Positions 1 through 39,464 of a stretch of DNA of 39,464 nt are shown in pieces (position 1 is the first letter of the stretch; the number at the start of each line of letters is the position of its first letter). The DNA lies in contig JAYWGM010000020.1 of assembly GCA_043778225.1 (NCBI GenBank), forward strand, positions 1-39,464, written 5' to 3'. The position numbers and the translations under genes were made by a program. This DNA comes from Deinococcales bacterium. Its GTDB lineage: Bacteria > Deinococcota > Deinococci > Deinococcales > JAAFIG01. The notes below the pieces were generated by a model. It had not been told where the DNA came from. It saw only the letters and a program-made list of their open reading frames with translations, and ran no database searches.

Positions 1-121
1 TCCGCAAAAAACGCGGATTGCTTCGTACCTGTCAAAGACGGTATTTGTTGATACTCCTTTTAGTCGGGAAGTTCTACGAACTTCCTCAATTTGGTATTAG
101 ATTCCTTAGCCACCTCGAGAA

Positions 122-1150
122 TCAGCGCAAGAGCAGGGCTTCTTTTAATTCTGTCACCCGTAATTCGCGGCTATCGGGTGGCATAATCGCTTCGGGTTTG
201 ACCAATCCAAGCTCGAGCTTGAGCATTTCTGGGGCAAATAAAAATCCAGTCATCATCGAGAATCGCAAACCGCCAGATGGACGGGCGTTAATCTCGAGAA
301 TACAGGGTAAACCGTTTTTATCTTCTTTGAATTGAATGTTGTAAATCCCGTTGAGGTCGTAATGCTGCGTCAGTTCGGAACAAATTTGGTGTAGTTGGGG
401 GCGAGCAAGCGAACCACAGACCACTTGGACATTGCCAAGTCCGCCAACTTTTTGTCGAACCACAGCACCGACCAAATTTCCCCGAAAAGCCAAGCAATCG
501 ACGCTGTATTCTGCGCCCGGTAAAAATTCCATCACCAGCATCGGCGGGAATTTTTTGGCATTGGCAAAAACGTGTTCGGCTTGGGTATACGACATTCGGT
601 GCGTATCACCGCGTAAAAAATCGGCAATGTTTTCTTGTTTGGTCAGCAAGCGAAAACCATAGCCATAAATACCAACGGCTGGTTTGATGCAGACCAAATG
701 CCCGCAAGCTCGTAATTGCGCGGCGGCTGCCTCGAGTTCTGACCACGAATGCACCACGATTGTTTGGGCAACTCGAGCCACGAGTGCGGGCAAGGCTACC
801 GAGAAGGCAGCTTTATCCTCGAGATGATCAAGGGTGGCTTTATTGGCAACCTGTAGCACTTTTGTACCGATTTGGGCAAAGCGCGATTGATGGCTGGCAC
901 ATAAAGCCGCCTCTTTACTCGGCACAAATAAATCAATTTGTTTGTCGCTACAAATTTTAAGCGCATACTCGAGATACGCCGCCCCGACCAGACCGGCTGG
1001 CTCGAGAAAATGCTGCCAATCGCCGTACAGCATCGGGCTGTCGGAAGACGTGTGCGATGCAAAAACAGTGGCATGGGGCAGAAGGGCTTGGAGTGAATGG
1101 GTGGTGGGTGAAAAATTTTTGTTGTACCAGATTTTTAAGTCTCGAGCCAC
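122..1150 (-). CDS. ATP-grasp fold protein (Ter-cluster-associated carboxylate-amine ligase)
   Basis: ATP-grasp motifs CIKPAVGIYGYGF, MEFLPGAEYSVD and LEINARPSGG; directly downstream of two TerD genes (2-nt gap). Confidence 0.8.
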   Translation of the reverse strand: MARDLKIWYNKNFSPTTHSLQALLPHATVFASHTSSDSPMLYGDWQHFLEPAGLVGAAYLEYALKICSDKQIDLFVPSKEAALCASHQSRFAQIGTKVLQVANKATLDHLEDKAAFSVALPALVARVAQTIVVHSWSELEAAAAQLRACGHLVCIKPAVGIYGYGFRLLTKQENIADFLRGDTHRMSYTQAEHVFANAKKFPPMLVMEFLPGAEYSVDCLAFRGNLVGAVVRQKVGGLGNVQVVCGSLARPQLHQICSELTQHYDLNGIYNIQFKEDKNGLPCILEINARPSGGLRFSMMTGFLFAPEMLKLELGLVKPEAIMPPDSRELRVTELKEALLLR

Positions 1151-1152
1151 AG

Positions 1153-1734
1153 TTAGAGTAACCCACGGGCTGCCGTCACCAAGTCTTGGGCGGTGGTCGA
1201 GCGGGTGTTATGCCCAATGGCATGGAGTTGCCAATCTGAGCCAGAGCGCGATAACTTGACCATAATTTGTCCAGTGTGGCTGCCTTGGGAAGACAAATTA
1301 AAACGGGCGACTTCTTTTTTCGCGTCGTCCAGAAGCCGACAAAAAGCATTTTCGACTTTATCAAAGGTTTGTCCACGGTATGAAGAAACCGTAAAGACCA
1401 AGTGTGCCACTTGTGGCGGAACTCGAGTTAAATCTACGCTAATCACTTCGTCGTCGCCGTCGCCAGCCCCAGTTAAATTATCACCCATGTGTTGCACCGA
1501 ACCGTCTTTGGATTTGAGTTGTCCAAAAAAAATCGTGTCCACAGATTCGCCACCCACGCCAAACATCAAACACGAGGCATCGAGGTCAATGCTGTTGTTA
1601 CCGCCCGAAAAAGCCGCAAATAAACCCTTGGGTTTTGCCACATCCCAACCTAAGCCCATTTGGACTTTGGTTAAAGAACGTCCAGCAGTTTTTTCTAAAC
1701 TGATTGCCTGCCCTTTGGTTAATGAAATTGCCAT
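1153..1734 (-). CDS. TerD-family stress protein (TerZ/TerD-like)
   Basis: MAISLTKGQ...MGLGWD...IDLDAS...HMGDNLTGAGDGDDE; start moved to ATG 1734, which follows GGAGG. Confidence 0.9.
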   Translation of the reverse strand: MAISLTKGQAISLEKTAGRSLTKVQMGLGWDVAKPKGLFAAFSGGNNSIDLDASCLMFGVGGESVDTIFFGQLKSKDGSVQHMGDNLTGAGDGDDEVISVDLTRVPPQVAHLVFTVSSYRGQTFDKVENAFCRLLDDAKKEVARFNLSSQGSHTGQIMVKLSRSGSDWQLHAIGHNTRSTTAQDLVTAARGLL

Positions 1735-1774
1735 AAAGACCTCCAGTGGGGATGGGTTGCCCATCCCCTATGCT

Positions 1775-2350
1775 TTAGACGTTTACGCCATACGAAGCCA
1801 CCAAGGCTTTGAAACCTTCGTTAAAGCCTTGTCCAATGGCTTTGAATTTCCATTCGCCATTGTTGCGGTAAATCTCGCCAAAGACCATGGCGGTCACGGT
1901 CGAGCCATCTTCGGACAAATCGAATCTCGAGATTTCTGCGCCACCTGTTTCGTTGACCACCCGAATATAGGCTTTTTCGACTTGCCCAAAGGTTTGTCCT
2001 TTGGTTTCGCCGTCAAAAATCACCACGGCGGCAATCACTTTTTCGACATCAGCCGCTAAGTTAGCAAGGTCGATAACAATGCTTTCGTCGTCGCCTTCGC
2101 CTTCGCCCGAACGGTTATCGCCGGCGTGTTGGACTGTGCCATCTGCCGAAGTTTTATTATTAAAGAAAATAAAATCGGCATCGCTGCGAACCTTGCCACT
2201 GGCGGTGACCATAAATGCCAATGCGTCCAAGTCAAACCCTGCGCCGTCGGTTTTACGAACGTCCCAACCGAGACCAAGTTTAATTTTGGTCAGACCGGGT
2301 GCTTCTTTGCTCAAATTCACGTTACCGCCCTTGGTGAGTACAACTGCCAT
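1775..2350 (-). CDS. terD: TerD-family stress protein
   Basis: LTKGGNVNLSKEAPGL, GLGWD, FDLDA, HAGDNRSGEGEGDDE, GEIYRNNGEWKFKAIGQG; GGAGG RBS. Confidence 0.92.
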   Translation of the reverse strand: MAVVLTKGGNVNLSKEAPGLTKIKLGLGWDVRKTDGAGFDLDALAFMVTASGKVRSDADFIFFNNKTSADGTVQHAGDNRSGEGEGDDESIVIDLANLAADVEKVIAAVVIFDGETKGQTFGQVEKAYIRVVNETGGAEISRFDLSEDGSTVTAMVFGEIYRNNGEWKFKAIGQGFNEGFKALVASYGVNV

Positions 2351-2494
2351 AAGAACCTCCGAAAAAAAACTTAAAATTTAATTGCCTCTCGAGGCAACCA
2401 AGAACATCATACGAGAGAATGTCAGATTTTGTTCCAAGTGGCTTAGGTTGTCTGCTGGTATCTTGCTCGGTCTCGAGCTTGATAAGTGGCTCAT

Positions 2495-2511
2495 TTATGT
2501 TATTTGCATAA
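2495..2511. promoter_or_regulatory. RDRM-like (DdrO operator) 17-bp palindrome upstream of gyrA
   Basis: TTATGTTATTTGCATAA (TTATG-N7-CATAA) overlaps a candidate -35 TTGCAT (2504-2509), with -10 TATCAT at 2528-2533; gyrA is an established RDR-regulon gene in Deinococcus. Confidence 0.75.
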
Positions 2512-2555
2512 CGTATCGTTTTTATGTTATCATTATGGGCTTATGGAGGTTTCAC

Positions 2556-4982
2556 TTGTCAGAAGTTATCCCCGTTAATATCACCGATGAAGTCAAAGAT
2601 TCATTTTTGACTTACGCCATGTCCACGATTGTCGAACGTGCCTTGCCCGATGTGCGCGATGGCTTAAAGCCAGTTCAGAGGCGCATTTTGTACGCCATGC
2701 ACTCGGACTTAAATCTGCTCTCGACCCGCAAGCACTCAAAAAGCGCTGGTGTGGTCGGCGAAGTGATCAAAAAATACCACCCTCACGGCGATATGCCAAT
2801 TTACGAAGCGATGGTGCGCCTTGCCCAGTGGTGGAATTTACGCTATATGCTGGTGGACGGTCAGGGCAATTTTGGTTCGCTGGATGGCGACCCTGCCGCC
2901 GCCTACCGTTACACCGAAGCCCGTTTGACCAAAGCCGCCGAAACCATGCTCGAGGACATCGAAAAAGAAACCGTTTCTTTTCGCCCAAATTTTGATGAGT
3001 CACACCAAGAACCAACTGTTTTACCCGCCGCGTTTCCGTATATGTTGGTCAACGGTGCGGTTGGTATTGCGGTCGGTATGGCGACCAATATCCCGCCGCA
3101 CAACCTGACCGAAATCTGCAATGGATTGCTGGCAATTATCGCTAAGCCCGAAATTGAACTCGATGAACTGATGACCTATGTGACCGGTCCGGATTTTCCA
3201 ACCGGCGGACGACTCGGTAAAAAAGGCATCCGCGAAGCCTATGCGACCGGTCAAGGCAGCATTCGTTTACGTGGTAAAGCCCGAATCGAAGAAGTCAAAG
3301 GGCGCAGCCAGATTGTGATTACCGAAATTCCCTACCAAGTCAACAAAGAAAACTTTATCAAGACCATCAGCGCTTGTTATAAAGAAGGTAAAATTCCAGA
3401 CATCAGCGCCCTGCGCGATGAATCTGACCGCAAAGACCCGGTGCGAATTGTTCTCGAGCTCAAGCGTGGCACACTGCCCGATTTGGTCTTAAACCAGTTG
3501 TACAAGCACACCCAACTGCAAACCAGCTTTAACATTATTAACTTAGCGATTGTCAATGGTGCGCCTAAAGTGCTGCCGATTAAAGCCGCGATGGTGCATT
3601 ACCTTGACCACCGCAAAGTCGTGGTCACCAAGCGCACCGAGTACGACTTACGAAAAGCTCGAGCCAGAACCCATATTCTCGAGGGGCTGCTGGTGGCTTT
3701 GGACAACATTGACGAAGTGATTCGTCTGATTCGGGCTGCCCAGAGCGGCGCAGAGGCTCGAGATGCGCTGATGGTGCGTTTTGCGCTGTCCGAGCCGCAA
3801 TCGCAAGCCATTCTTGATATGCGCCTACAGACCTTGACGGGTTTATCTCGAGACCGCCTCAACGAAGAGTACCGCGAACTCCTGACCACAATTGGATTTT
3901 TAGAAGGGATTCTGGGCGACACAACCATTTTGTGGAACGAGATTATCAAAGAAATTACCAATCTGCGCGATAAATTTGGCGACGAACGCCGCACCATGAT
4001 TGCCGATTTATCCGAAGACATCACCAAAGAAGATTTAATTGCGGTCGAAGACATGGTGATTACCGTCACCAAGGGCGGCTACATGAAGCGCACGGCGCTC
4101 GAGGCATATCGTGTCCAAGCTCGGGCTGGGCGTGGCGCAAACTCGGGCAAACTGCGCGACGAAGACCTCAACACCAATTTGTTGGTTGGCAGCACCCACG
4201 ATTACTTGCTGTTTTTTACCGACAAGGGCAGAGTTTTCCGCGAAAAAATCTTTGATATTCCCGAAGCCGGACGCGATGCCAAAGGCGCTCATTTACGCAA
4301 CATTCTGCCTTTGCGCGACGACGAAAGCGTGGCTGGAATTTTAGACCTCAAAGACTTTAATGTGGCTGGCTCGTTGATTTTTTGCACCAAGCAAGGGATT
4401 ATCAAAAAGACCGAAATTGCTGACTACATCAACATTACTGCCGCAGGGCTGATTGCGATTAACCTACTCGAGAACGACCATTTAATCGAAGTCGCAGTCG
4501 TCAAACCGACCGAACAAGTCGTGCTGGCAACCCTAGACGGGCAAAGCATTCGTTTTAGCGAAGATGATGTTCGCGCCACTGGTCGCGCCACCCAAGGCGT
4601 GATTGGCATTCGCCTCAAGAAAGATGATGTTGTGGTCTCGATGAGCATTGTTCAACCCGACGACACTGGCGAATTATTGGCAGTTTCGGAAAATGGCTAC
4701 GGCAAACGCACCCCGATTTCTGAGTATCCACTTCAAGGACGTGGCGGACAAGGTGTGATTACCTTAAAAGTGACCGATAAAACTGGCAATCTGGTTTCGC
4801 TTGAGCGGGTTGGCGGCGACGAAGAACTGATGGTTCTGAGTGCCAATGGTGTGGCGATTCGCACCAGAGTCGAAGAAGTCTCGAGCTACGGGCGAAGCAG
4901 TCAAGGGGTCAAAGTGATGCGAATTGAAGACAAGGATAAAGTCATTCGTGCCTTTGCAATTCGCCAAGAGGAAACGTTATAA
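2556..4982 (+). CDS. gyrA: DNA gyrase subunit A
   Basis: [22 protein letters not shown], catalytic-Tyr region [10 protein letters not shown], GyrA-box-like QARAGRG and C-terminal pinwheel repeats; TTG start at 2556 after GGAGG. Confidence 0.97.
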
Positions 4983-5171
4983 AATTCACACTTTAGATTT
5001 CTCGAGCATCTTTGTGGCACGCAAAAGTATTACTTCTCACCGCAACTCGAGGATAATTCTCATCAAGCTGGACTAACTTAGTAAACGAAGGCGCAGCCAA
5101 CAGCGAACGCCTCCATACATCCCTCCCCCAGCCCCCGAAAGGGGGCGCAATTTTTGGCTGATTCTCGAGAT

Positions 5172-5218
5172 ACAGCCCAATCTTTGAGATGGTGACACAG
5201 CCCAATCTTTGAGATGGT
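5172..5218. repeat. 22-bp direct repeat, period 25
   Basis: ACAGCCCAATCTTTGAGATGGT at 5172-5193 and 5197-5218. Confidence 0.9.
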
Positions 5219-5279
5219 AAAGGGCTGACATAAAAGCGTTATACTCTACACTGAGCTTCAAAATTCAGGAGGAAACATT

Positions 5280-5996
5280 ATGTGGCCATTTGGTAAAAGT
5301 GCAACCGACAGCATCAAAGATGAAATGAAGAAATTCCCGTTCTTGGCAAATCAATCTATCACCTTCACCGAACGCGGAGGCTCGGTCTATTGGAATGGAG
5401 TCGTGGCAAATGATGCCATGAAAACGCTGCTTTCTAAGTTGCCAATTGGTATCAATGGTATTAAAACGGTAGACGTGAGTAATGTCACGGTGCTTGCCGC
5501 CGCCGAAGCCAGTGCCAGTGCCATCGAAAGCGTTGACGAAGCCACCATTCAAGAAGCGATTGACCGTAATGCCTTGGCTAAAAATGTCTTTGCTGCTTTC
5601 CAAGCCGACCCAGAACTGAACAACAACCCGATTGCTGTCTTGCAAAGCGGCGATGGTGTGGTGCTGCGTGGTGCTGTGGATTCACAACACGAATTTAACT
5701 TGGCAGTCAAACTTGCCCAAGAAAACGGTGCAAACCGCGTCATGTCCGATGAACTCGAGATTGTGGACAATGCCAAAGCCAAAGCTGCCGAATCTGCCAA
5801 AGCCGAAGAAGCCAAAAAACCAGCCTATGTCAACTTGCCAGACGAATACCATATCGTCAAACCGGGCGATACCTTGAGCGCCATTTCGCAAAAATACTTT
5901 GGCGATACCGACCACATTGATGACATTGCCAAAGCCAGTGGGGTCAGCAACCCAGATTTGATTAAAGTTGGGCAAAAACTGCAAATCCCACGCTAA
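5280..5996 (+). CDS. BON + LysM domain protein (YgaU/Kbp-like)
   Basis: BON-like VVLRGAVDS segment; C-terminal LysM YHIVKPGDTLSAIS...NPDLIKVGQKLQIP; AGGAGG RBS. Confidence 0.88.
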   Translation: MWPFGKSATDSIKDEMKKFPFLANQSITFTERGGSVYWNGVVANDAMKTLLSKLPIGINGIKTVDVSNVTVLAAAEASASAIESVDEATIQEAIDRNALAKNVFAAFQADPELNNNPIAVLQSGDGVVLRGAVDSQHEFNLAVKLAQENGANRVMSDELEIVDNAKAKAAESAKAEEAKKPAYVNLPDEYHIVKPGDTLSAISQKYFGDTDHIDDIAKASGVSNPDLIKVGQKLQIPR

Positions 5997-6006
5997 GAGC
6001 TAAGTT

Positions 6007-6050
6007 AAAAAGGGTAAAAGGTGAAAGGGTTAAAAGGCTTTCACCTTTTT
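6007..6050 (+). terminator. Hairpin made of AAAGG(T/G) repeat units; probable terminator
   Basis: AAAAGGTGAAAG (6016-6027) pairs with CTTTCACCTTTT (6038-6049), followed by a T-rich tract. Confidence 0.6.
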
Positions 6051-6066
6051 GTTTTAGTCTGCGCTT

Positions 6067-6657
6067 ATGGATATTTTTGCTCGAGTATTAGCCTTGGTTG
6101 CTTGTTATTTGATTGCGGCGGTCAGTCTTTCGGTGCTGTATTCAAAATCTCGAGGAGAAGACATTCGCAGTAATGATTTTGCTGGAGCAAGCGGCATGGT
6201 GCGGCGTTATGGCTGGAAAGTCGGGCTTAGTATTGCGGTTGCCGATGTGGTCAAAGGCTTTTTAGCCGCCTTGCCACTGTATTTTTTGGCTCGAGATTGG
6301 CTTTGGCTTGCCCCAGCCATGGTTGCCCTTGGGCATTGTTACCCGATTTGGCACGGTTGGGTTGGTGGACAAGGCGTTGCTCCTGCGACGGGCGCATTGT
6401 ACGGCGTAGACCCTCTGATTGGTGCAGTAGCGATGTTCGGTGGTTTAGGGCTGATGGGGCTTCATCGGGTTTTGAAACTTAAACCACTGGTGCGGCTTGG
6501 CAGTGTGCCATTTTCGGCGGTTCTAACGCTGTTGATACTTTTGGTTCTGGCATACTCGAGATACGGTCTTGCAGGGGTGAGCGGCATCGGGCTGTTGATT
6601 ATGGTCATGGGTATTCGGGGCTTGCAAGTGCTGCGTTCACCGCCACCGGGCGCATAA
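6067..6657 (+). CDS. plsY: Glycerol-3-phosphate acyltransferase PlsY
   Basis: Membrane protein with DIR...GA, DVVKG and LGHCYPIW..W.GGQGVA motifs. Confidence 0.8.
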   Translation: MDIFARVLALVACYLIAAVSLSVLYSKSRGEDIRSNDFAGASGMVRRYGWKVGLSIAVADVVKGFLAALPLYFLARDWLWLAPAMVALGHCYPIWHGWVGGQGVAPATGALYGVDPLIGAVAMFGGLGLMGLHRVLKLKPLVRLGSVPFSAVLTLLILLVLAYSRYGLAGVSGIGLLIMVMGIRGLQVLRSPPPGA

Positions 6658-6693
6658 CAGGTCTTGCCACCGGGCGCATAACAGGTCTTGCCA
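6642..6693. repeat. 24-bp tandem duplication spanning the plsY stop codon
   Basis: GCCACCGGGCGCATAACAGGTCTT twice (6642-6665, 6666-6689) plus GCCA. Confidence 0.9.
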
Positions 6694-6694
6694 A

Positions 6695-7555
6695 TCAACG
6701 GGTATTGCGTGGGTCAAGTGCGTCGCGCAGACCATCGCCGACCAAGTTAAACGCCAGCACCGCCAGCAAAATCGCAATCGCTGGGGCAGAACTTGCCCAA
6801 GGGGCTTCGGAAATAAAGTTGCGCGTTTCCGAGACCATCGCGCCCCATTCTGGAGTTGGTGGCTGCGCTCCAAAGCCAATAAAAGACAACCCTGCGGCGG
6901 TTAGAATGGCTTGCCCAACGTCAAAACTGGCTTGGATAAGCACAGGTGTTAAAGTATTTGGAAACACATGACGTAAGGCAATGCTGATTTGGCTTGTGCC
7001 GATGGCTCGAGCCGCCTCAACAAATTCGCGTTCGCGCAGTGCCAAGGCTTGAGCGCGTACTAGACGTGCATAACTGGGCCAACTGACAATTGCTACGGCA
7101 ATAATCGTATTGGTTAAACTCGGACCAAGGGCAGCCGCAATTGCCATGGCTAGAATTAAACTAGGAAAAGCAAAGAAAATATCGGTAATTCGCATTAAAA
7201 TGTTATCCCAGATGCCACCAAATGTACCTGCTAAAAGCCCCACCAGCACTCCAAGAGTCACAGCAATAGCCGTGACGATAAAACCAACTTGCAACGATAA
7301 CGACGCACCGTGCGCCACACGCCCCCAAACGCTGCGCCCAAGTTGGTCTGTGCCCAGTAAATGTTGGCTCGAGGGTGGCTGAAGGCGCTGCGCCAAATCT
7401 TGGAGAATCGGGTCTGGCGAAATAACCCGTGCAAACAGCGCAATCAAAACCAGCAAAACCAGCAATACCATACCGATGATTGAAGCTGGATTGCGCCAAA
7501 AGCGTTTTGAGGCTTTGGAGGCTTGTTTCTTTGGGGCTTGAGCAGCACTAAGCAT
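6695..7555 (-). CDS. Peptide ABC transporter permease (DppC/OppC family)
   Basis: HLLGTDQLGR, EAA motif REFVEAARAIG, LSFIGFGAQPPTPEWG, GDGLRDALDP. Confidence 0.93.
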   Translation of the reverse strand: MLSAAQAPKKQASKASKRFWRNPASIIGMVLLVLLVLIALFARVISPDPILQDLAQRLQPPSSQHLLGTDQLGRSVWGRVAHGASLSLQVGFIVTAIAVTLGVLVGLLAGTFGGIWDNILMRITDIFFAFPSLILAMAIAAALGPSLTNTIIAVAIVSWPSYARLVRAQALALREREFVEAARAIGTSQISIALRHVFPNTLTPVLIQASFDVGQAILTAAGLSFIGFGAQPPTPEWGAMVSETRNFISEAPWASSAPAIAILLAVLAFNLVGDGLRDALDPRNTR

Positions 7556-7592
7556 ACATAATCCTTGCTGTGTTAAGCATACATAATCCTTG
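7549..7592. repeat. 19-bp direct repeat (period 25) at the permease-permease junction
   Basis: TAAGCATACATAATCCTTG at 7549-7567 and 7574-7592. Confidence 0.9.
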
Positions 7593-8580
7593 GGTCAAAC
7601 AGCGCATAGAGTAAATCTGTCACCAAATTGATAATCGAATAGGCAATCCCAGCCAATAAAGTCACACCCATCACCGCCGGAAAATCAAGGCTGATGGCGG
7701 CATCGGTGGTGTAGCGCCCGACACCAGGCCAAGAAAAAATCGTCTCGGTCAGCACCGCCCCCGATAACAGCCCACCCAGCACCCCGCCCAACACCGTCAG
7801 AACGGGCAAAAAAGCGTTTCGCAAGGCGTGTTTGACCACCACTCGAGACTGGGCAATGCCTTTGGCTCTGGCGGTGCGAATATAATCTTGGCTCATGGTC
7901 TCGAGCATTGCGGCGCGGGTCATACGCGCCAGCAGCGCCGAGCTAAACGCCCCAAGCACAAACGCGGGCAAAATTAGGTGCATGAGGCTATCGCCAAAAA
8001 CCTGCCAATCGCCAGCGATAATCGAGTCTAGACCGACAAACCCCGTGACTCGAGGCGGCGCAATCAAATAAGCATCTAAGCGCCCGGGTCCGGGCAGCAG
8101 ACGCAATTTATTGTGCAGGAATTCCAGTAGCAAAATTGCCAGCCAATAAATCGGGGTTGCTCCACCCAGCAGCGCCAACAAGCGCACGATTAAATCAGGG
8201 GCTTTATTTTGGTTCAACGCCGCCAGTACCCCGGCTGGAATACCAATCAGCGCAGCAATCAAGAGGGCTGCCCCAGCCAACTCGAGTGTGCCGGGAAAAA
8301 AATCGCGCAGGTCATCGCTAATCGGGCGACCTGTTCGCAGGCTCGTCCCAAGGTCGCCTTGCAATAACCGCCCAAGATAACTAAAGTATTGGGTCACCAC
8401 AGGTTGGTCTAAGCCATTTTTGACCCGAAAAATCGCAATCATTTCGTCGGTGGCTTTATCGCCAAGAGCAGCCAAAGCTGGGTCGCCGGGGACGACTTGT
8501 GAGATAAAAAAAGTGGCAAGCGACACGCCCCAAACCACAAACAGCACAAAAAATAATCTTCGGATAATATAGTTCAGCAT
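7573..8580 (-). CDS. Peptide ABC transporter permease (DppB/OppB family)
   Basis: MLNYIIRRL, PGDPA, GDLGTS, DYIRTARAKG, ETIFSWPGVG; start set at ATG 8580. Confidence 0.93.
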   Translation of the reverse strand: MLNYIIRRLFFVLFVVWGVSLATFFISQVVPGDPALAALGDKATDEMIAIFRVKNGLDQPVVTQYFSYLGRLLQGDLGTSLRTGRPISDDLRDFFPGTLELAGAALLIAALIGIPAGVLAALNQNKAPDLIVRLLALLGGATPIYWLAILLLEFLHNKLRLLPGPGRLDAYLIAPPRVTGFVGLDSIIAGDWQVFGDSLMHLILPAFVLGAFSSALLARMTRAAMLETMSQDYIRTARAKGIAQSRVVVKHALRNAFLPVLTVLGGVLGGLLSGAVLTETIFSWPGVGRYTTDAAISLDFPAVMGVTLLAGIAYSIINLVTDLLYALFDPRIMYA

Positions 8581-8592
8581 TTTTCTCTTATG

Positions 8593-8625
8593 ACGCGAGG
8601 AGCGCATGGTCTGCGCTCCTCGCGT
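8593..8625. other. Strong intergenic hairpin between the binding-protein gene and the permease gene
   Basis: ACGCGAGGAGCGCA / TGCGCTCCTCGCGT, perfect 14-bp arms; probably stabilises or attenuates the mRNA. Confidence 0.65.
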
Positions 8626-8633
8626 GGGCAAAT

Positions 8634-10202
8634 TTACTTAGAAATCTTCTCGAAACGCACTTGCCCTTGGGCATTGCGAAGGTAGCCTTTGACAGTTGTC
8701 GAAAGCGTGACTGGTACTTTTGGTTGGTACAAAATAGCAAACGGACCTTCTTCAAGGTGAAGTTCGGTCAGTTGCTTATAAAGGGCGGCGCGTTTGGTAC
8801 TGTTGGTCTCGAGCGCGGCTTGTTGTGCCAATTTGCCGGCTGCTGGGCTGTTCCACGCATTGCGCCAAGCTAGGCTTTTTGCACCGTAGTCCGACATTGG
8901 TGTAGCGTTGCCGTCCGGATCCGGAAAGTCCGGCGACCAACCAACAATCACCATTTGGGCTTTCTGGGCGCGGTAAATACCCAAAAGTTCGGATTGGACA
9001 ATTTGTTTAATGTTGGCTTTAAGACCAATTTTACCAAGGTCAGATTGAATTTTAGCCGCTAAGTCGGCGCACGGGACACCCGCCGCACAAGAACCTTGTG
9101 GCACGAGCATTTCAAATTCAAAACCATTAGGTTTGCCAGCGGCTGCCAGTAATCCTTTGGCTTTTTCGACATTAACACTGTACGGGTTACTTGGGTTAAA
9201 ACCAAATAAGCCAGCCGGAATAATCGTTTGCACTTTACGAGCATTACCGCCCGCCAGCACATTGACGATGCTGTCTTGGTCAACTGCCCAACGCACGGCT
9301 TGACGGACTCGAGCATCCTCGAAAACGCTACCCGCACCCGTGTTCATCCCGAGGTACTGCAAGCGCAACGAATCGGCTTTATAGACATTAAATTTGCTAT
9401 CGGTGGCTTTGGCTTTAACCATATCAGGAGTCAGATTTTCGGCAATGTCAATCTCGCCGCTCTCGAGCGCGATTTTTTGGGTGTTGGCTTCTTTCATTTC
9501 ACGCAAAATAATGCGGCTTAGTTTAGGTTTGAGGCTCGAGTTGGGGTTGGCATCCAAAATCACTTGTTGGTTTTGGTCCCAACGGTTCAGGCTGTACGAC
9601 CCCGACCCTGCCGAGTTGCGTTTGAGCCATTCCGAGCCGTAATCGTTGCCGACTGCTTTGGTCTTGACCAAAACGCTATCCACGATACCGCCAATGTTAA
9701 AGGTTAAGAGGTTCAGGAACGCGGCTGGACTGGCGGTTTTTGGCAAAGTCACTTCGACTGTGGATTTACCAAGGGCTTTGGTGCTGCCGATTTTCATGTT
9801 GGCAACTTCATCGAATAAAAATGAACCGTTGCCTTTAAGAGCAATTGCACGGTCAAAGGTATAAACCACATCGGCGGCGGTGACTGGATTGCCCGAAGCA
9901 AATTTTTTATTTGCCAAATTAAAGGTTACTTTCCAACTGCTGCCAGCGTCCTTAACTGTCCAACGCGCCGCGATGCTGGGTTTTAAGGTGCTTAAATCTT
10001 CGCCCTCGAATTTAACAAGGGTTTCGTATAAATTATCGGTGATTAAACCACCTGAAAATTCATAGCTGATGCCGGGGTCTAAGGAAATTAAATCCGAAAA
10101 ATCCCCACCGTAGACTAAGGTACTCGAGCGGGAGTTCTGAGCCACACCGACTGCCAATAAGCCAATGCTAAGTAATGCTGCCGCGCCAATTCGTTTTCGC
10201 AT
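8634..10202 (-). CDS. Peptide ABC substrate-binding protein (family 5), paralog 2
   Basis: Signal peptide MRKRIG..., SLDPG, NLYETLV, KFASGNPVTAADV, WSPDFPDPDGN; AAAGGAGAGG RBS before ATG 10202. Confidence 0.93.
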   Translation of the reverse strand: MRKRIGAAALLSIGLLAVGVAQNSRSSTLVYGGDFSDLISLDPGISYEFSGGLITDNLYETLVKFEGEDLSTLKPSIAARWTVKDAGSSWKVTFNLANKKFASGNPVTAADVVYTFDRAIALKGNGSFLFDEVANMKIGSTKALGKSTVEVTLPKTASPAAFLNLLTFNIGGIVDSVLVKTKAVGNDYGSEWLKRNSAGSGSYSLNRWDQNQQVILDANPNSSLKPKLSRIILREMKEANTQKIALESGEIDIAENLTPDMVKAKATDSKFNVYKADSLRLQYLGMNTGAGSVFEDARVRQAVRWAVDQDSIVNVLAGGNARKVQTIIPAGLFGFNPSNPYSVNVEKAKGLLAAAGKPNGFEFEMLVPQGSCAAGVPCADLAAKIQSDLGKIGLKANIKQIVQSELLGIYRAQKAQMVIVGWSPDFPDPDGNATPMSDYGAKSLAWRNAWNSPAAGKLAQQAALETNSTKRAALYKQLTELHLEEGPFAILYQPKVPVTLSTTVKGYLRNAQGQVRFEKISK

Positions 10203-11864: not shown

Positions 11865-11921
11865 GTCTTCTCCTTAAATACCGACTCGAGCCGTGATGTT
11901 GCTGACGGCTGTTCTTGTGTT

Positions 11922-11972
11922 TAGCAATTTATCTTGCTAGATTATCTTAACAGTTTGCAAGAATTTTTGCAA
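11922..11972. promoter_or_regulatory. Pair of palindromic operator candidates (probably RpiR sites)
   Basis: TAGCAA-N6-TTGCTA (11922-11939) and TTGCAA-N6-TTGCAA (11955-11972), 33 bp apart, in the divergent SBP/RpiR promoter region. Confidence 0.55.
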
Positions 11973-12026
11973 GTTCTCAAAGCTGCCCATTTGTTTTAGA
12001 ATGCGCCTCTCGAGATTGGATAAATT

Positions 12027-12943: not shown

Positions 12944-12954
12944 TAGGAGTCTTC

Positions 12955-26121: not shown

Positions 26122-27194
26122 GCCAAGAACTACGCCAACACGCCGAACAAGAATTTGCCCACGAACTCGAGGCGCTGAGTCAACTCGACGATAAGCCCAA
26201 ACCGCCAAATTGGAAACTCAGCCCGTGGGCGGTAATTCAATACCTGATGGGCGGTAAGGTTGGTAAACTCGAGATAAAACCTAAGTACATTGGTAGCCAA
26301 CGCCTGATGGAAATTGCCGTCGCAACCCTCGCCACCGACCGTGCATTGTTGCTTTTGGGCGTACCCGGCACAGCCAAAAGTTGGGTCTCTGAACACCTTG
26401 CCGCTGCTATCAGTGGCGACAGCACCTTGCTGGTTCAGGGTACTGCTGGCACATCCGAAGAAGCGATTCGCTATGGCTGGAACTATGCCGAGTTACTCTC
26501 CAAAGGACCGAGTATCAAAGCAATCGTCGAAAGCCCAATTATTCGCGCCATGAAAACTGGCACAATTGCACGGCTCGAGGAACTGACCCGCATCCCAAGT
26601 GATGTTCAAGACGCACTGATTACGGTATTAAGCGAAAAAACCCTGCCGATACCCGAACTGAACACCGAAGTCCAAGCCAAAAAAGGTTTTAACATGATTG
26701 CCACTGCCAACAATAAAGACCGTGGCGTAAATGAACTCTCGAGCGCCTTAAAGCGCCGCTTTAATACCGTTATTTTACCTGTACCAGACAATATGGACGA
26801 AGAAATTCGGATTGTCCAAACAAGGGTTGCCGACCTCGGTCGCGCCCTCGAGTTACCCGCCCAAACCCCAGCGCTCGAGGAAATTCGGCGGGTGGTGCAG
26901 GTTTTTAGGGAACTGCGCGATGGCAAAACCACAGATGGCAAAACCAAACTCAAAAGCCCAAGCGGCACATTAAGCACCGCCGAAGCCATCGGGGTAATTA
27001 ACCAAGGGCTGGCATTGGCAGCCCACTTTGGCGATGGGGTACTGCGGGCGGGCGATGTCGCCTCGAGTTTAATTGGGGCGATTATTAAAGACCCCATACA
27101 AGACCGTGTGGTGATGCTTGAGTACCTCGAGACGGTGGTCAAAGAACGCGATGGTTGGAAAGATATTTACCGCGCCTGCCGCGACGTGGTGTGA
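26118..27194 (+). CDS. MoxR-type AAA+ ATPase (YehL-like)
   Basis: Walker A variant GVPGTAKS, YGWNYA, Walker B LEELTR, ATANNKDRGVNELSSALKRRFN, LSTAEAI. Confidence 0.9.
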   Translation: MSQELRQHAEQEFAHELEALSQLDDKPKPPNWKLSPWAVIQYLMGGKVGKLEIKPKYIGSQRLMEIAVATLATDRALLLLGVPGTAKSWVSEHLAAAISGDSTLLVQGTAGTSEEAIRYGWNYAELLSKGPSIKAIVESPIIRAMKTGTIARLEELTRIPSDVQDALITVLSEKTLPIPELNTEVQAKKGFNMIATANNKDRGVNELSSALKRRFNTVILPVPDNMDEEIRIVQTRVADLGRALELPAQTPALEEIRRVVQVFRELRDGKTTDGKTKLKSPSGTLSTAEAIGVINQGLALAAHFGDGVLRAGDVASSLIGAIIKDPIQDRVVMLEYLETVVKERDGWKDIYRACRDVV

Positions 27195-27195
27195 A

Positions 27196-29400
27196 ATGAG
27201 CTTACATTTTTTTGGTATTCGCCATCACGGCGCTGGTGGTGCAAGGTCGTTGTTGCGTGCTTTGCGTGTTCTCGAGCCAGATTGTGTGCTGGTCGAAGGT
27301 CCGCCCGATGCCAACGATTTACTGCCACTTTTGGCTCATACCGCCATGACCCCGCCAATTGCGCTGTTGCTGTACGCCAAAGACGACCCCTCGAGAGCCG
27401 TCTACTATCCATTTGCGGTCTTTAGTCCAGAATTCCAAGCCATACGCTATGCCCTCGAGGCACAAGTCACGGTGCGTTTTATGGATTTACCCCAAACCCA
27501 TCAATTAACCGTAGAAGCGGGCGAGGCAAGCTGTCTTGACCCTACAGTTGGTGATGATGTTGCCGCCGACCCGCTAGGTTGGTTGGCAAAAGCCGCAGGT
27601 TTTTCCGATGGCGAGCGCTACTGGGAATATCTGGTCGAACAGCGCCGCTCGGACGAAGATGTCTTTGCGGCAATTCTCGAGGCGATGACGGCACTGCGGC
27701 TCGAGTCAAAGACCCTCGAGCTACGCGAAGCCCAGCGCGAGGCGTTTATGCGCCAAAGCATTCGCAAAGCCCAAAAGGACGGTTTCAAAAAAATCGCGGT
27801 GGTCTCTGGTGCATGGCATTCGCCAGTCTTGGATAGTGACCAATTCGATGCCAAAGCCGATGCAGCCTTGCTCGAGGGTCTGCCAAAAACGGCGGTCTCG
27901 AGTACCTGGATTCCATGGACACACGGCAGACTGGCTCGCTCGAGTGGTTACGGCGCGGGCATTACCAGTCCGGGTTGGTATGCTCACCTGTGGGAACTCC
28001 AAGACTCGAGTTCGCGCAATGTGATTACCCACTGGTTGACCAAAGTGGCGCATTTGCTGCGAGCCGAGGATTTACCCGCCTCGAGTGCCAGTGTGATTGA
28101 AGCCGTGCGTTTAGCCGAAGCCTTGGCTGCCTTGCGTGGTTCGCCAATGCCGGGTTTGGAGGAATTAAACGAGGCTTCTCGAGCTTTGTTCGCGTGGGAT
28201 TCTGATTTGCCACTCCAGCTCATTGCCGAGAAACTGATTCTGGCAGAAACCCTTGGGGCTGTGCCGCCCGAAACCCCGACTGTGCCGTTGGTGCGCGACC
28301 TCGAGGCGGAACAAAAACGGTTGCGCTTTAAGCCCGATGCAGTTGCTAAAAATGTGGAATTTGATTTGCGTTCCGCCAATGATTTGGAGCGCAGTGTCTT
28401 GCTGCATCGGCTGCGCTTGTTGGGTGTGCCGTGGGGCGAGGTTATCGGCTCGAGTGGCAAAGGAACATTTAAGGAGGGCTGGCGGGTTCAGTGGCATCCC
28501 GAATTTGCGGTGCGGCTGATCGAAGCTGCCATGTTTGGTTCGAGTGTGTTGGAAGCCGCCACCCAGAGAGTCTTAGAAATCTCGAGTCTAACCAGTCATT
28601 TACCAACGCTTACAAAATTACTCGATGATATTTTGCTCTCGAACTTGCCCAATGCCGCCCAACTCGTGATGACGCGGCTCGAGGCAGCTGCCGCCCAAGA
28701 CGCGGACATTAACCACCTGATGCAGGCAATTCCGCCACTTGCAAGGGTGCAACGTTACGGCAGTGTGCGGCAACTCGATACAACCATGCTGGCTGGTGTT
28801 GTCTCTGGGCTGGTGCTGCGGGTCTGCGTTGGGCTACCGAATGCCTGTGTCAGTTTATCGGACGAGGCTGCGCTCGAGTTATTTCCGCATTTTTTCGAGT
28901 TGCACAGTGCTATTGCCACCCTCGAGCAACCCGATTTACTGACCTCGTGGCGCGAAGTGCTGGCAGTCTTAGCCGTGCAGCACAACCTGCATGGTTTAAT
29001 TGCTGGTCGAGCCTCGAGATGGCTGCTTGAAGCTGGTGTTTACAGTGCCACAACCACCGCCAATCGTTTATCGTATGTGGCTGGCGTTGCCACCGACCCA
29101 AACGAAGTGGCAGCTTGGACAGATGGTTTTCTGCGTGGTTCGGGCTTAGTCTTGGTTCACGACGATGCACTTTTTGGCGTGCTGGATTCATGGGTGCAGC
29201 ACCTCACCCCCGAGGCGTTTATTGCCATTCTGCCCCTGATGCGCCGTACCTTCTCGAGTTTTGAAGAAGCCGAAAAACGCGACATTGGTCAGAAAGTCAA
29301 AACCCCAAGGCAGCGACTCACGTCTCGAGCCGCCCAAAACCTAGATGTTTCTCGAGCCGAAAAAGTCATTCCGCTGATTGCCCAAATGCTAGGCATTTAA
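27196..29400 (+). CDS. DUF5682/YehM-like protein (putative metal-dependent hydrolase N-terminus)
   Basis: FGIRHHG, VLVEGPPD, YYPFAVFSPE, REAFM, GAWH, SGYGAG; start ATG 27196, 1 nt after the ATPase stop. Confidence 0.8.
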   Translation: MSLHFFGIRHHGAGGARSLLRALRVLEPDCVLVEGPPDANDLLPLLAHTAMTPPIALLLYAKDDPSRAVYYPFAVFSPEFQAIRYALEAQVTVRFMDLPQTHQLTVEAGEASCLDPTVGDDVAADPLGWLAKAAGFSDGERYWEYLVEQRRSDEDVFAAILEAMTALRLESKTLELREAQREAFMRQSIRKAQKDGFKKIAVVSGAWHSPVLDSDQFDAKADAALLEGLPKTAVSSTWIPWTHGRLARSSGYGAGITSPGWYAHLWELQDSSSRNVITHWLTKVAHLLRAEDLPASSASVIEAVRLAEALAALRGSPMPGLEELNEASRALFAWDSDLPLQLIAEKLILAETLGAVPPETPTVPLVRDLEAEQKRLRFKPDAVAKNVEFDLRSANDLERSVLLHRLRLLGVPWGEVIGSSGKGTFKEGWRVQWHPEFAVRLIEAAMFGSSVLEAATQRVLEISSLTSHLPTLTKLLDDILLSNLPNAAQLVMTRLEAAAAQDADINHLMQAIPPLARVQRYGSVRQLDTTMLAGVVSGLVLRVCVGLPNACVSLSDEAALELFPHFFELHSAIATLEQPDLLTSWREVLAVLAVQHNLHGLIAGRASRWLLEAGVYSATTTANRLSYVAGVATDPNEVAAWTDGFLRGSGLVLVHDDALFGVLDSWVQHLTPEAFIAILPLMRRTFSSFEEAEKRDIGQKVKTPRQRLTSRAAQNLDVSRAEKVIPLIAQMLGI

Positions 29401-29426
29401 CCGTAGGGTTTGCCATGGCAAACCCT
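29401..29426 (+). repeat. GTAG-type REP-like palindrome
   Basis: CCGTAG GGTTTGCC-AT-GGCAAACC CT immediately after the stop codon; same CCGTAGGG head as the element at 19757. Confidence 0.55.
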
Positions 29427-29464
29427 GTGACCTGCAAATCCCATCACCAAAAGGAGTCTAAATC

Positions 29465-31308: not shown

Positions 31309-31928
31309 AAACAGGCGCGACCAACTCGCAACACGGTTGCGCCTTGGGCAATCGCCAGTTCTAAATCGTCCGACATTCCCATGCTCAGATGCTCGAGTCC
31401 AAGCTGGTCGCGGAGTTTTCGCAGCCCGCTAAAAGCCAATTGGGCTAATTCTAAGTTTTGCGGCGCAACCGTCATCAAGCCACGCACATTCAAACCCAAG
31501 TCTCGAGCAATTGCCAATAGTTCGGCAGCTTGGTCTGGCGCAACGCCGTGTTTTTGGGCTTCAAAACCCATGTTAATTTCTAAAAGTAAATCTGGAATGC
31601 GCTCCCAAGTCTGGCTGCGCTTGGCAATTTCCTCGAGTAAGCGTGGGCTATCGATGCTGTGAATCATACTAAAGCCAGCGCAGAACTTGACTTTATTGGT
31701 TTGCAGATGCCCAATTAAATGCCACTCGAGATTTGGTTCTGCCTCGAGTTTGGGTAGGGCTTCCTGAATGCGGTTTTCGCCAAGGATGCCATGACCATGG
31801 GCTAAAACAGCCGTCTGGATTTCTGATAAAGAATGCCCTTTGGTGACAGCAATCAGTTTGACCTCTTTGGGGTCGCGGTTGGCGGCTTGGCAGGCGGTTT
31901 TGATGCGGGTGAGTACGTCTTGAAGCAT
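31305..31928 (-). CDS. yggS: YggS-family PLP homeostasis protein
   Basis: LIAVTK, GENRIQE, WHLIGHLQTNK, GLMT, LSMGMSDD, VRVG-like end. Confidence 0.93.
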   Translation of the reverse strand: MLQDVLTRIKTACQAANRDPKEVKLIAVTKGHSLSEIQTAVLAHGHGILGENRIQEALPKLEAEPNLEWHLIGHLQTNKVKFCAGFSMIHSIDSPRLLEEIAKRSQTWERIPDLLLEINMGFEAQKHGVAPDQAAELLAIARDLGLNVRGLMTVAPQNLELAQLAFSGLRKLRDQLGLEHLSMGMSDDLELAIAQGATVLRVGRACF

Positions 31929-32764: not shown

Positions 32765-32952
32765 GGTCTTCATCTTACGATGTTTGTCTGAGACTTCGCT
32801 CACCTTAAAGGACTTTGACTCGGGTAAACTTGCACGCTCTTGGCTTGTGACCAACGCTTAAAATACTTTATTAGCGCTTCTCACCCATGCTTCACGCACG
32901 CTGGTCAAAAAACCGCGAGACTCGAGCGCGTCAACAGATATATGGAGGTTTC

Positions 32953-35652: not shown

Positions 35653-35690
35653 ATTAAAAGAGGCGAAAATCATTTTCGCCTCTTTTAATT
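35652..35690. terminator. Bidirectional terminator
   Basis: Perfect 19-bp inverted repeat AATTAAAAGAGGCGAAAAT-c-ATTTTCGCCTCTTTTAATT between convergent genes. Confidence 0.85.
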
Positions 35691-36932: not shown

Positions 36933-37063
36933 GGCGCTACTCTACTCGAGTTGACTGCATAAAAAGCCATACCTAGAGTGAGGATGGGCTTCTTGATAAA
37001 CAATTGATAAACCATTCCAAAGTTGGGTGTGTCTTGAATGGCTAACTTCTAAAATACAAAACG

Positions 37064-38419: not shown

Positions 38420-38427
38420 AAAAATGT

Positions 38428-38462
38428 AAAAATCGCCGCTCGAGACTCGAGCGGCGATTTTT
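38428..38462. terminator. Bidirectional terminator with two CTCGAG sites at its apex
   Basis: AAAAATCGCCGCTCGAG-a-CTCGAGCGGCGATTTTT between convergent genes. Confidence 0.85.
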
Positions 38463-38471
38463 TTGTCTGCT

Positions 38472-38723
38472 TTAAGCTGTTTTGTAAACGCCAGCTTGTT
38501 TCATTAAACGACGGGCGGTATCGCTGGCTTGTGCGCCAACCCCGAGCCAGTATTTGGCACGTTCGTTGTTGATGTTCAGCCAGTTCTCGGTGGTTTTGCG
38601 TGGGTCGTAGTGACCCAAGTTCTCGAGGTAGCCACCATCGCGTTTTTGCTTGGCATCCACGACAATTAAGCGGTAATGCGGGTTGTGGGTGTTGCCCAGA
38701 CGGGTGAGACGAATTTTGACCAT
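38472..38723 (-). CDS. rpsP: 30S ribosomal protein S16
   Basis: [20 protein letters not shown]...[13 protein letters not shown]...[16 protein letters not shown]. Confidence 0.97.
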
Positions 38724-38952
38724 TTTTTTATACACTCCTACGCGATTTTGAGGCTGTCACGCGACGGAGCGCAACATTTCATTCGACGATTTCAGCAGCC
38801 AAGCATCTCGCCGATAGCCGAAAGAGACTAGCACCAAAGTTATTTTTTCTCAAGGGACGCTCAAGTTCGATCTCGAGGAACGTTAAGCCATACCCCTAAA
38901 ATTAGAGCGCTTTGCACACATTGACCTCACTGCAAGCGGTATGCTAGAAACC

Positions 38953-39464
38953 ATGAAACGCCCGAATATCTGGGTTGTGTTGTTGATTGCCCTCGCCTTG
39001 GTGCTGTTGGTGAGCATTAATTTGCGTCCCGGTACGTCTGCCACCAACTATGAAATCAGTCAATTTGCCGCCAAAGTCAGTTCTAAACAAGTCAAAAGTG
39101 TGCTGATTGGTCGGGTCAACAACAATTTGGTCGAACTCGAGTTTACCCTGCGCGACGCTAAACCAGACACCAAGTACCGCACCAGCACGACTGCCGACGA
39201 CAATTGGGCAAAGCCAACTTATTTGGTCGCCCAAGGCATCACTGAAGTCAGTGTCCGTGAAGCTGGCAACATCGGTTGGTTGGCATTGGCATTAAACATC
39301 GTGCCGATTTTGATTTTGGGTGCATTTTTGTGGTTTATGGTGCGTGGAATGCGAAGTGGCTCGGACGGAGCAATGAGCTTTGGGAAATCTCGAGCTAAAC
39401 AAATCGAGAAACCAAGCACCCAATTCAAAGATGTAGCTGGTTGCGACGAAGCCAAAGAAGAACT
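38953..39464 (+). CDS. ftsH: ATP-dependent zinc metalloprotease FtsH (5' part, runs off the window; absent from the ORF track)
   Basis: Manual translation: MKRPNIWVVLLIALALVLLV... second TM ...GAMSFGKSRAK...TQFKDVAGCDEAKEE. Confidence 0.93.
   Translation, partial: MKRPNIWVVLLIALALVLLVSINLRPGTSATNYEISQFAAKVSSKQVKSVLIGRVNNNLVELEFTLRDAKPDTKYRTSTTADDNWAKPTYLVAQGITEVSVREAGNIGWLALALNIVPILILGAFLWFMVRGMRSGSDGAMSFGKSRAKQIEKPSTQFKDVAGCDEAKEE

Follow-up and report, generated by a model that had tools for sequence, protein, structure and literature searches.

Iterated words in bacterial genomes

The closest described counterpart of the element studied here is HIP1 (GCGATCGC), the highly iterated palindrome of cyanobacteria, together with its alternate HIPs. 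According to the available parts of three papers (PMC4390886, PMC5861425 and PMC13756078), HIPs are exact, short palindromes that are over-represented in coding DNA as well as outside it, and HIP1 spreads by substitution, exceeds what codon usage provides, has a patchy phylogeny with losses and is scarce in imported genes. For three decades HIP1 has lacked an explanation, and it has been regarded as peculiar to cyanobacteria. Here we analyse the hexamer CTCGAG, which shares these properties, in a 39,464-nt stretch of DNA (hereafter the window) that is contig C20 (JAYWGM010000020.1) of a Deinococcales bacterium (hereafter G000), and in its relatives. We find that the abundance of CTCGAG is independent of codon usage and gene structure, and we propose, with a probability of roughly 0.4, that it is a HIP-like word under strong saturating selection, which a host factor would read as a mark of resident DNA and which invaders would mimic.

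CTCGAG differs from HIP1 in several respects. It is a 6-mer in another phylum, whereas HIP1 is an 8-mer in cyanobacteria, and it is denser (~4,300–8,500 copies/Mb, compared with 300–2,700/Mb for HIP1 in Table 2 of the available part of PMC4390886). HIP1 has DmtC and DmtA, as given in the accessible portions of the HIP1 papers, whereas no conserved cognate methyltransferase was found for CTCGAG in five families. Unlike HIP1, CTCGAG is coupled to a near-total purge of other palindromes and shows short-range repulsion between sites with no evident long-range quasi-periodicity (no peak from 30 to 1,500 bp). A second, denser and independent case in another phylum indicates that the phenomenon is general. 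It also offers contrasts that are absent in cyanobacteria (i.e. the sisters G150 with and G151 without the trait, the lack of a conserved methyltransferase in the families searched, a measurable saturation distance and invader DNA that copies the word), and such contrasts constrain theories of how iterated words arise.

DNA uptake sequences (DUS) of Neisseriaceae and uptake signal sequences (USS) of Pasteurellaceae are likewise over-represented genome-wide and scarce in foreign DNA; their accumulation, like that of the word considered here, is thought to proceed through many weak events, and the phylum studied here is known for natural competence. DUS and USS are longer, non-palindromic and occur about once per kb. 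In the present case, the competence genes ComEC and DprA were found in genomes with and without CTCGAG enrichment and do not appear to track it. Chi, the self mark of RecBCD/AddAB, is another short over-represented word that would shield resident DNA, and invaders would gain by carrying it. Chi is asymmetric, replication-oriented, only several-fold enriched and present about once per 5 kb in Escherichia coli. Restriction-modification (R-M) systems of the XhoI/PaeR7I type recognise CTCGAG itself, but where they act the site is usually no commoner than expected, an example being the Deinococcus-like genus described below (~10–360/Mb).

No published description of the CTCGAG trait was found in a literature search that left subscription journals and supplements aside. 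The only relevant match for CTCGAG over-representation concerns the honey bee (PMC3903499), and the available part of Elhai 2015 (PMC4390886) does not contain the word. The palindrome purge, the clade distribution, the contrast between G150 and G151, the methyltransferase test, the repulsion and the spacer results are new.

CTCGAG in the window and in its source genome

The original prediction put the number of CTCGAG sites in the window at about 250, an excess of about 25-fold over some ten expected copies. Exact counting gives 250 sites, or 1 per 158 bp, across positions 1..39464 (strand not applicable, here as for the other stretches below that are no genes). The predicted excess stands against a uniform expectation of 39464/4096 (26-fold) but grows to 46-fold against 100 dinucleotide-preserving shuffles, which gave a mean of 5.41 and a maximum of 13 copies and got to 250 in 0/100 cases. 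GC content is 49–53% along the window. In a gene model made of the longest open reading frames (ORFs; 36 genes), 142 sites are in frame as CTC-GAG, the remaining two frames account for 42 and 49, another 17 fall between genes, and 144 sites lie in genes of the + strand and 89 in genes of the − strand. The word thus occurs in all three frames, on both strands and between genes, as had been claimed.

Five of six positions named earlier as intergenic are so by counts and the ORF model: three sites (5001–5006, 5046–5051 and 5164–5169) in the spacer at 4983..5279, and two (11885–11890 and 12009–12014) in the spacer between divergent genes at 11865..12026. The sixth, at 2472, falls within the 5' extension of the longest frame (TTG at 2382) of gyrA, encoding DNA gyrase subunit A (2382..4982, + strand; Pfam DNA_topoisoIV 6e-156 and DNA_gyraseA_C), which holds 11 CTCGAG, seven of them as Leu-Glu, and served as the marker gene for finding relatives and for the tree. 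Because all GyrA alignments of relatives start at residues 53–60, downstream of site 2472, this site is probably non-coding too, a point that the alignments suggest but do not settle.

The source genome G000 is a 4.03-Mb metagenome-assembled genome (MAG) of 107 contigs (89% complete, GC 48.7%). It holds 24,877 CTCGAG, one per 162 bp, with an observed/expected ratio (O/E) of 26.7 under a mononucleotide model and 47.5 under a dinucleotide model. It outnumbers every other hexamer by a factor of three, and the runners-up are its own overlaps. The unit is the bare hexamer, because no 8-mer is conspicuous and none of the eight positions flanking it on either side carries more than 0.045 bit; palindrome-extending 8-mers are even under-represented (e.g. 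CCTCGAGG, 243 copies vs 812 expected). A dispersed repeat element (a repetitive extragenic palindrome, REP, or a miniature inverted-repeat transposable element, MITE) was considered and rejected, as there is no conserved sequence beyond the core.

Genes in G000 were taken as the longest non-overlapping ORFs of at least 100 aa, a crude model rather than a curated annotation (3,475 genes, 88.7% coding). Coding and non-coding DNA have the same CTCGAG density, 6.18/kb, and the 2,822 non-coding sites correspond to an O/E of 31.8. Of the 22,075 coding sites, 13,010 are in frame CTC-GAG, and the remaining frames account for 4,448 and 4,617. When synonymous codons were shuffled within genes (five shuffles), only ~1,640 + 390 + 310 sites were left (~2,330 in all). 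A dicodon shuffle preserves CTC-GAG by construction, so non-coding DNA and the two other frames serve as an independent control. The density profile in 30-bp bins from −300 to +300 around ORF starts and stops is ~6/kb throughout, with two exceptions, namely the opening 30 bp of ORFs (4.8) and the stretch immediately before stops (8.5). In 5-kb windows the mean is 6.2/kb (standard deviation 1.35; Poisson 1.11), and the few CTCGAG-poor windows are low-GC islands. Methyltransferase genes range from 0 to 7.6 sites/kb, those that look imported holding 0–3 sites/kb, and the 68 tRNA genes (ARAGORN) contain six CTCGAG where genome density predicts 32.7. A 16S search of this 89%-complete assembly gave none. 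Only two sequencing runs contain this DNA, in which the share of the word implies ~0.1% divergence, with too few variants for a polymorphism test.

These counts uphold the original prediction that codon bias alone is insufficient and that the word is HIP-like, i.e. an exact short palindrome in tens-fold excess. A genome-wide site-favouring force must exist, because the word occurs in all frames and between genes, is tens-fold over-represented and exceeds codon bias. The 59% of coding sites that are in frame CTC-GAG could point to a by-product of composition, codon-pair preference or a dispersed repeat. This explanation is refuted: synonymous shuffles remove ~90% of coding sites, the non-coding excess stands, relatives with GC from 42% to 64% all carry the word densely, the flanks are uninformative and orthologues show substitution variants rather than insertions.

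The word also rewrites proteins. In G000, 13,010 of 18,842 Leu-Glu pairs (69%) are written CTCGAG, whereas codon use outside such pairs predicts 2.1% (log-odds shift 4.65), and the word is found at 56% of [SPTA]-Arg-[VADEG] and 42% of x-Ser-[SR] positions. No dipeptide of the proteome exceeds its expectation more than Leu-Glu (O/E 2.32, compared with 0.97 for Glu-Leu), and protein sequences are therefore bent by the word. GyrA gives an example, with 13 Leu-Glu pairs and 18 CTCGAG in trait-bearing G150, compared with five and one in its trait-free sister G151. The protein composition of the clade is thus partly dictated by a DNA-level rule.

Distribution among Deinococcota

The GyrA relatives of G000 are MAGs of uncultured 'Deinococcales bacterium'. 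Twelve relative loci (GC 42%–64%) hold 2.6–6.6 CTCGAG/kb, and CTCGAG is the top hexamer in 11 of them. In a panel of 31 genomes, made up of 19 from the family of G000 (five genera) and 12 outgroups, all 19 family genomes contain ~4,300–6,800 CTCGAG/Mb, while the reversed control GAGCTC has 0–25 copies in 16 of them and 114, 161 and 568 in the other three. The enrichment is therefore neither confined to one contig nor an assembly artefact, since it recurs in 19/19 family genomes from several studies, including one closed 5.09-Mb chromosome.

We then counted the word in 364 Deinococcota genomes (with rounded genome sizes, GC or codon normalisation only in sampled genomes, and one unpublished genome, G325, on which nothing rests). 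More than 4,000 copies/Mb occur only in all 19 genomes of the family and in G149 (~8,500/Mb) and G150 (~7,000/Mb). These two belong with G151 (~300/Mb) to one genus of the Deinococcus-containing family, in which two of three genomes bear the trait. Intermediate densities are found in G032 (~3,600/Mb) and in several Meiothermus-like and Truepera-like genera (2,000–3,500/Mb); genus labels of this kind are guesses. The Deinococcus-like genus g7 (111 genomes, GC mostly unmeasured) is the opposite of its sister family, with a scarce ~10–360/Mb. The Thermus-like genus (32 genomes) has ~630–1,560/Mb with a similar count of the control word, which gives no support to the suggestion that the TCGA core points to Thermus.

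In sampled DNA, the O/E of CTCGAG and of the other 63 palindromic hexamers, respectively, is 14.6 and 0.41 in G013 (the closed chromosome), 27.6 and 0.43 in G150, 30.5 and 0.30 in G149, 1.1 and 0.83 in G151, and 10.3 and 0.78 in G032. Enrichment and purge usually go together yet are separable, because G032 is enriched without a strong purge. In a GyrA tree (a single gene with 20 rows, built by a quick method with SH-aLRT, i.e. Shimodaira–Hasegawa-like approximate likelihood ratio, supports and midpoint rooting), the family is monophyletic (support 100) and sister to the Deinococcus-containing family (99), and trait-bearing G150 and trait-free G151 are sisters (100). Together with the distribution, this means that the word was either gained more than once or is old and was repeatedly lost, between which a single gene cannot decide.

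Turnover and mutual repulsion of sites

Conservation was analysed at 12 orthologous loci, which are small samples of 1–43 sites each. CTCGAG is kept 1.5–2 times more often than average hexamers, yet it turns over: 23/43 sites are shared at 79% identity (background 0.32), 7/8 at 82%, 3/9 at 73% and 1/9 at 69%. The conserved share exceeds that of other hexamers in 10/12 loci (e.g. 0.53 vs 0.32, 0.88 vs 0.32 and 0.75 vs 0.22), the exceptions being L010 (0.11 vs 0.13) and L012 (0/1). Opposite a site that is not conserved, the alignment shows a substituted hexamer (CTCGAA, CTTGAA, TTAGAA, CCCGAG and others), and gaps are few. The word thus spreads by substitution and not by insertion of an element, and since its density is held at 4–6.6/kb while positions change, the process is active and not a relic.

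CTCGAG sites repel one another within ~50 bp, silent positions included. Their pair correlation in G000 is 0.31 at 6–12 bp, 0.47 at 12–18 bp, 0.73 at 18–24 bp, ~0.88 at 24–45 bp and 1.0 from ~60 bp. With the protein held fixed, Leu-Glu pairs are more often written CTCGAG the farther away their nearest neighbouring site lies, the share increasing from 0.305 (6–12 bp) through 0.428 (12–18 bp), 0.590 (18–24 bp), 0.658 (24–36 bp), 0.692 (36–48 bp) and 0.726 (48–72 bp) to 0.77–0.79 (72–200 bp). Repulsion is also seen in intergenic DNA (0.55 at 6–12 bp), in G013 (0.61 at 6–18 bp), in G149/G150 (0.36) and at ten loci of other family species (0.42). By contrast, abundant non-palindromic hexamers cluster (1.05–1.73). 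A spacing of 7 bp (CTCGAGNCTCGAG) occurs 123 times, compared with 30–53 times for 8–11 bp, a small spike inside the repulsion zone.

Neighbour exclusion within ~20–50 bp resembles a binding footprint, and it could be taken to mean that an abundant DNA-binding protein anchors at regularly spaced CTCGAG and compacts the chromosome. A structural role was earlier proposed for HIP1 from its quasi-periodic spacing. The very even distribution over 5-kb windows and the reduced number of gaps of 400–800 bp (1,467 vs 1,869 under a geometric model) would fit as well. However, the only periodicity is the 3-bp codon signal, the pair correlation is flat at ~1.04 from 90 to 1,500 bp, and no periodic peak appears from 30 to 1,500 bp. 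Nucleoid architecture also leaves the invader DNA described below unexplained and has no candidate protein, and we consider it very unlikely.

The distance effect also bears on the biased-repair model of Elhai, which is in print for HIP1 (available parts of PMC4390886 and PMC13756078). Here, the word would accumulate by a mutational ratchet, as molecular drive without function: a pair of enzymes in the cell, for example a methyltransferase that marks the word and a mismatch-nicking activity, would preferentially repair near-cognate or heteroduplex sites towards CTCGAG in any replicated DNA. Equal coding and non-coding density, the flat metagene profile and the range among methyltransferase genes (0 to 7.6 sites/kb), with recently acquired genes site-poor and older ones richer, are as such a drive predicts. 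An independent-site drive does not, however, predict a distance-dependent drop at silent positions, and the transition neighbours CTTGAG/CTCAAG and TTCGAG/CTCGAA are not depleted (O/E 1.36–1.42). Selection is favoured over a blind repair ratchet mainly because of the distance effect; the ratchet otherwise agrees well with the data, although none of the enzymes tested for it is supported.

CRISPR spacers and invader DNA

G000 carries a complete type I-E locus of clustered regularly interspaced short palindromic repeats (CRISPR) with cas3, cse1, cse2, cas7, cas5, cas6e, cas1 and cas2 (C80:16-11352, L226). Its array, which extends up to the end of the contig, has 44 repeats of 29 nt and 43 spacers. 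These 43 spacers match neither the rest of the assembly (≥24 nt aligned) nor GenBank phages or PLSDB plasmids. The repeat recurs among the relatives only in G016, in three copies.

The 43 spacers (1,399 nt) contain ten CTCGAG at varying positions, or 7.15/kb, where composition predicts 0.26 (Poisson P = 4e-13) and the density of the host 7.3. The taboos of the host hold in the spacers as well, with no GATC (4.6 expected), one GGCC (3.9) and seven copies of other palindromic hexamers (18.2). In five other family species, whose spacers, like those of the other genomes, were taken from arrays adjoining Cas1 genes, there are 12 CTCGAG in 52 spacers (6.5/kb; 0.45 expected, P = 1e-13), which brings the trait genomes to 22 in 95 spacers. 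Trait-free G151 has none in 27 spacers, and intermediate G032 has three in 48 (1.8/kb). The word density of CRISPR-targeted DNA therefore tracks that of the host. This signature would equally follow from biased repair acting on any replicated DNA.

CTCGAG also lies inside CRISPR repeats of 35–37 nt in five family arrays (L230–L234; G003, G010, G009 twice and G006), and HIP1 is likewise found inside a Synechocystis CRISPR repeat, according to the available part of PMC6604393. A scan of viral contigs for three CTCGAG within ~70 bp returned at least 80 long loci, mostly of high GC where CTC-GAG is ordinary coding, and none of the matches listed shows the full low-GC signature. The HK97 capsid family PF05065 has no match above cut-off in the 19 family genomes. 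CTCGAG density flags imported DNA and could help link viruses to hosts in these communities.

Loss of other palindromes

The original prediction missed the near-erasure of most other palindromic hexamers. In the window, 32 of the other 63 have zero copies, and GGCC and GATC occur three and 14 times (161 and 154 expected). In G000, 34 of the 63 have an O/E below 0.1 (i.e. more than 10-fold depleted) and 51 below 0.3. The 4 Mb contain a single copy each of GACGTC, AGGCCT and GGGCCC, three of GGCGCC and 24 of GAGCTC; GGCC has 131 copies (O/E 0.009) and GATC an O/E of 0.13. Palindromes make up 34 of the 120 rarest hexamers, and the rarest non-palindromic words form the sets GRCGYC, RCATGY, GDGCHC, GGNNCC and RGATCY or contain GGCC. 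Such words persist at places that function keeps from changing: TTCGAA has 13 of its 34 copies in tRNA genes, which make up only 0.13% of G000, and the 31 rarest palindromic hexamers together have 25 of 596 there. In practice, this DNA is an abnormal substrate for XhoI and for the majority of common six-cutters.

This depletion is restriction-site avoidance on an unusual scale. In line with such avoidance (Rusinov et al. 2015, PMC4687349), palindromes and classic degenerate sites are the rare words. G000 has ~20 intact DNA-methyltransferase genes (five C5, three N4/N6-beta, three Dam-class and ~9 gamma-class) and another two or three that are broken or weak. Trait-free G151 (2.3 Mb, 95% complete) has no match above cut-off in five DNA-methyltransferase families and no palindrome avoidance (other 63 hexamers O/E 0.83, compared with 0.30–0.43 in trait genomes). 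What differs from known cases is that the depleted specificities outnumber the type II methyltransferases of G000; moreover, avoidance accounts for depletion and not for one enriched word. The best explanation, as one part of a reading that we hold tentatively as a whole, is that the purge is a separate process that travels with CTCGAG and reflects many, fast-changing R-M systems in the lineage.

Two side observations concern these genes. G151 keeps Cas1 with its 27-spacer array, ComEC and DprA. G000 and G150, which belong to different families, have four R-M genes in common at 49–67% protein identity, with one neighbour gene shared too: two C5 genes (C33:16098-17730 and C2:28346-29356 in G000; L020 and L023 in G150), a 1,353-aa enzyme (C93:55659-59717; L034/L053) and HsdM (C15:53821-55416; L042). 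All four are missing from the closed chromosome of G013, which is of the same family as G000.

Search for an enzyme or a reader

The original prediction held that the responsible enzyme is not in the window, and in agreement with this a search of the window's contig for five Pfam families of methyltransferases found none. It also raised a link to a methyltransferase, as for HIP1, or to a Vsr-like gene, which is not supported here. The XhoI-family nuclease (PF04555) is found in 0/19 family genomes and 1/12 outgroups (other CTCGAG nuclease families were not searched), Vsr in 0/19 and 1/12, and the MutH family in 2/19 family genomes. NucS occurs in four genera of the family and also in the Deinococcus-like genus, which is trait-free; it is only sub-threshold in most of the genus of G000 and was not found in G000 itself. 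None of these four (XhoI-type nuclease, Vsr, MutH and NucS) tracks the trait.

The closed chromosome of G013 encodes one C5, no N4/N6-beta, two Dam-class and four gamma-class methyltransferases. When all their frames were compared with G000 by tblastn, the C5 enzyme reached at most 33% identity, the Dam-class enzymes gave nothing and the gamma-class enzymes gave 25–30%. Trait-bearing G149 (58% complete) has no match above cut-off in the five families. Since G000 and G013 share no orthologue in the five families, there is no support for a conserved cognate methyltransferase of the kind that is the hallmark of HIP1. A methyltransferase of an unrecognised family, or non-orthologous enzymes of the same specificity, are possible. 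For the biased-repair model, this lack of an orthologue and the distribution of Vsr, MutH and NucS are unfavourable, while the complete decay of the trait in the sister lineage G151, with no match in the five families, is what the loss of one enzyme would give. Taking these results with the distance effect and the invader DNA at host density, we regard such a drive as rather unlikely.

A further explanation is that a competence or post-uptake step prefers (possibly methylated) CTCGAG-containing DNA, that recombination among kin spreads the word as a watermark and that the restriction-site purge helps incoming DNA survive. An uptake watermark is now proposed for HIP1 (available part of PMC13756078). 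ComEC was found in 4/5 and DprA in 7/8 genomes checked, the sole miss being the 58%-complete G149; both occur in trait-bearing G000, G013 and G150. Extreme restriction-site avoidance would be expected for DNA that moves among cells with differing R-M systems, and a benefit that saturates per DNA stretch would fit one site per fragment. However, the two genes occur equally in trait-free genomes (G151, G020 and G022), including a Deinococcus-like and a Thermus-like one. Known uptake sequences are 9–12 nt long, non-palindromic and present about once per kb. CRISPR-targeted DNA has the full host density, which uptake with homologous recombination does not predict for phages. We therefore consider an uptake watermark improbable. 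In G000, dprA, which encodes the DNA-processing protein used in natural transformation, and a Dam-class methyltransferase gene (389-aa frame) share one strand at C89:21497-24825, with dprA ~1.5 kb upstream; no orthologue of this methyltransferase was seen in G013.

A putative mark of resident DNA

In the reading that we prefer, at the probability given above, CTCGAG would arise by point substitution as a bare 6-bp word without extended context, and a strong, ongoing, sequence-specific force would hold ~6 copies/kb in coding, non-coding and invading DNA alike. To a putative host factor the word would mark resident DNA, which this factor might, for instance, spare, repair, recombine or take up; the benefit would saturate once a site lies within ~50–100 bp, and selection would also favour the word in the lineage's phages and plasmids. 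The likeness to Chi fits the spacer result, because invaders would gain by carrying the word. The data show the abundance of the word, its independence of codons and gene structure, the rewriting of proteins, turnover at constant density, the repulsion, the clade distribution and the spacer signature; we infer that the force is selection rather than biased repair, that the reader is a protein and what its reading might do.

Several points weigh against such a mark: (i) no reader protein was identified, and nothing ties the word to uptake, because ComEC and DprA are found in trait-bearing and trait-free genomes; (ii) other palindromic hexamers mildly repel too (0.64–0.91, on 8–18 pairs each), part of the repulsion could come from avoiding close inverted or direct repeats (hairpins and slippage), and a distance of 6 is missing simply because the avoided word GAGCTC would result; (iii) one-off neighbours are not depleted (transitions O/E 1.1–1.4), although neither selection nor repair bias predicts their frequency sharply; (iv) a host-imposed mutation or repair bias would give the same invader signature, phages commonly resemble their hosts in word usage, and the spacers could derive from long-resident plasmids, temperate elements or kin DNA; and (v) every gene model consists of longest-ORF calls with no curated annotation.

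A more specific form of the proposed mark is a dense password, in which a host nuclease, a repair or recombination factor or a defence system reads the word every ~50–100 bp. We regard this form as unlikely. If true, DNA without the word would be treated as foreign, and phages and plasmids would be forced to copy it. Together with the restriction-site purge, it would amount to a new innate discrimination of self from non-self written into the whole genome, Chi-like but palindromic and ~30 times denser, and it may explain HIPs generally.

Other features of the window

In a 5-kb scan, the stretch 5001..10000 has a locally lower density (3.6 sites/kb) and five copies of avoided words, here taken as 31 rare palindromic hexamers plus GGCC. 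It is among the 5-kb windows of the genome that are richest in avoided words, and CTCGAG is still far above chance there. An Rfam search of the window gave no match. At 23270-29400 lies a gene cluster for a SWIM zinc-finger protein and for DUF5691 and DUF5682 (Pfam E-values as low as 4e-256). It has a 358-aa frame between the Pfam-matched genes and looks like a conserved system of undefined function.

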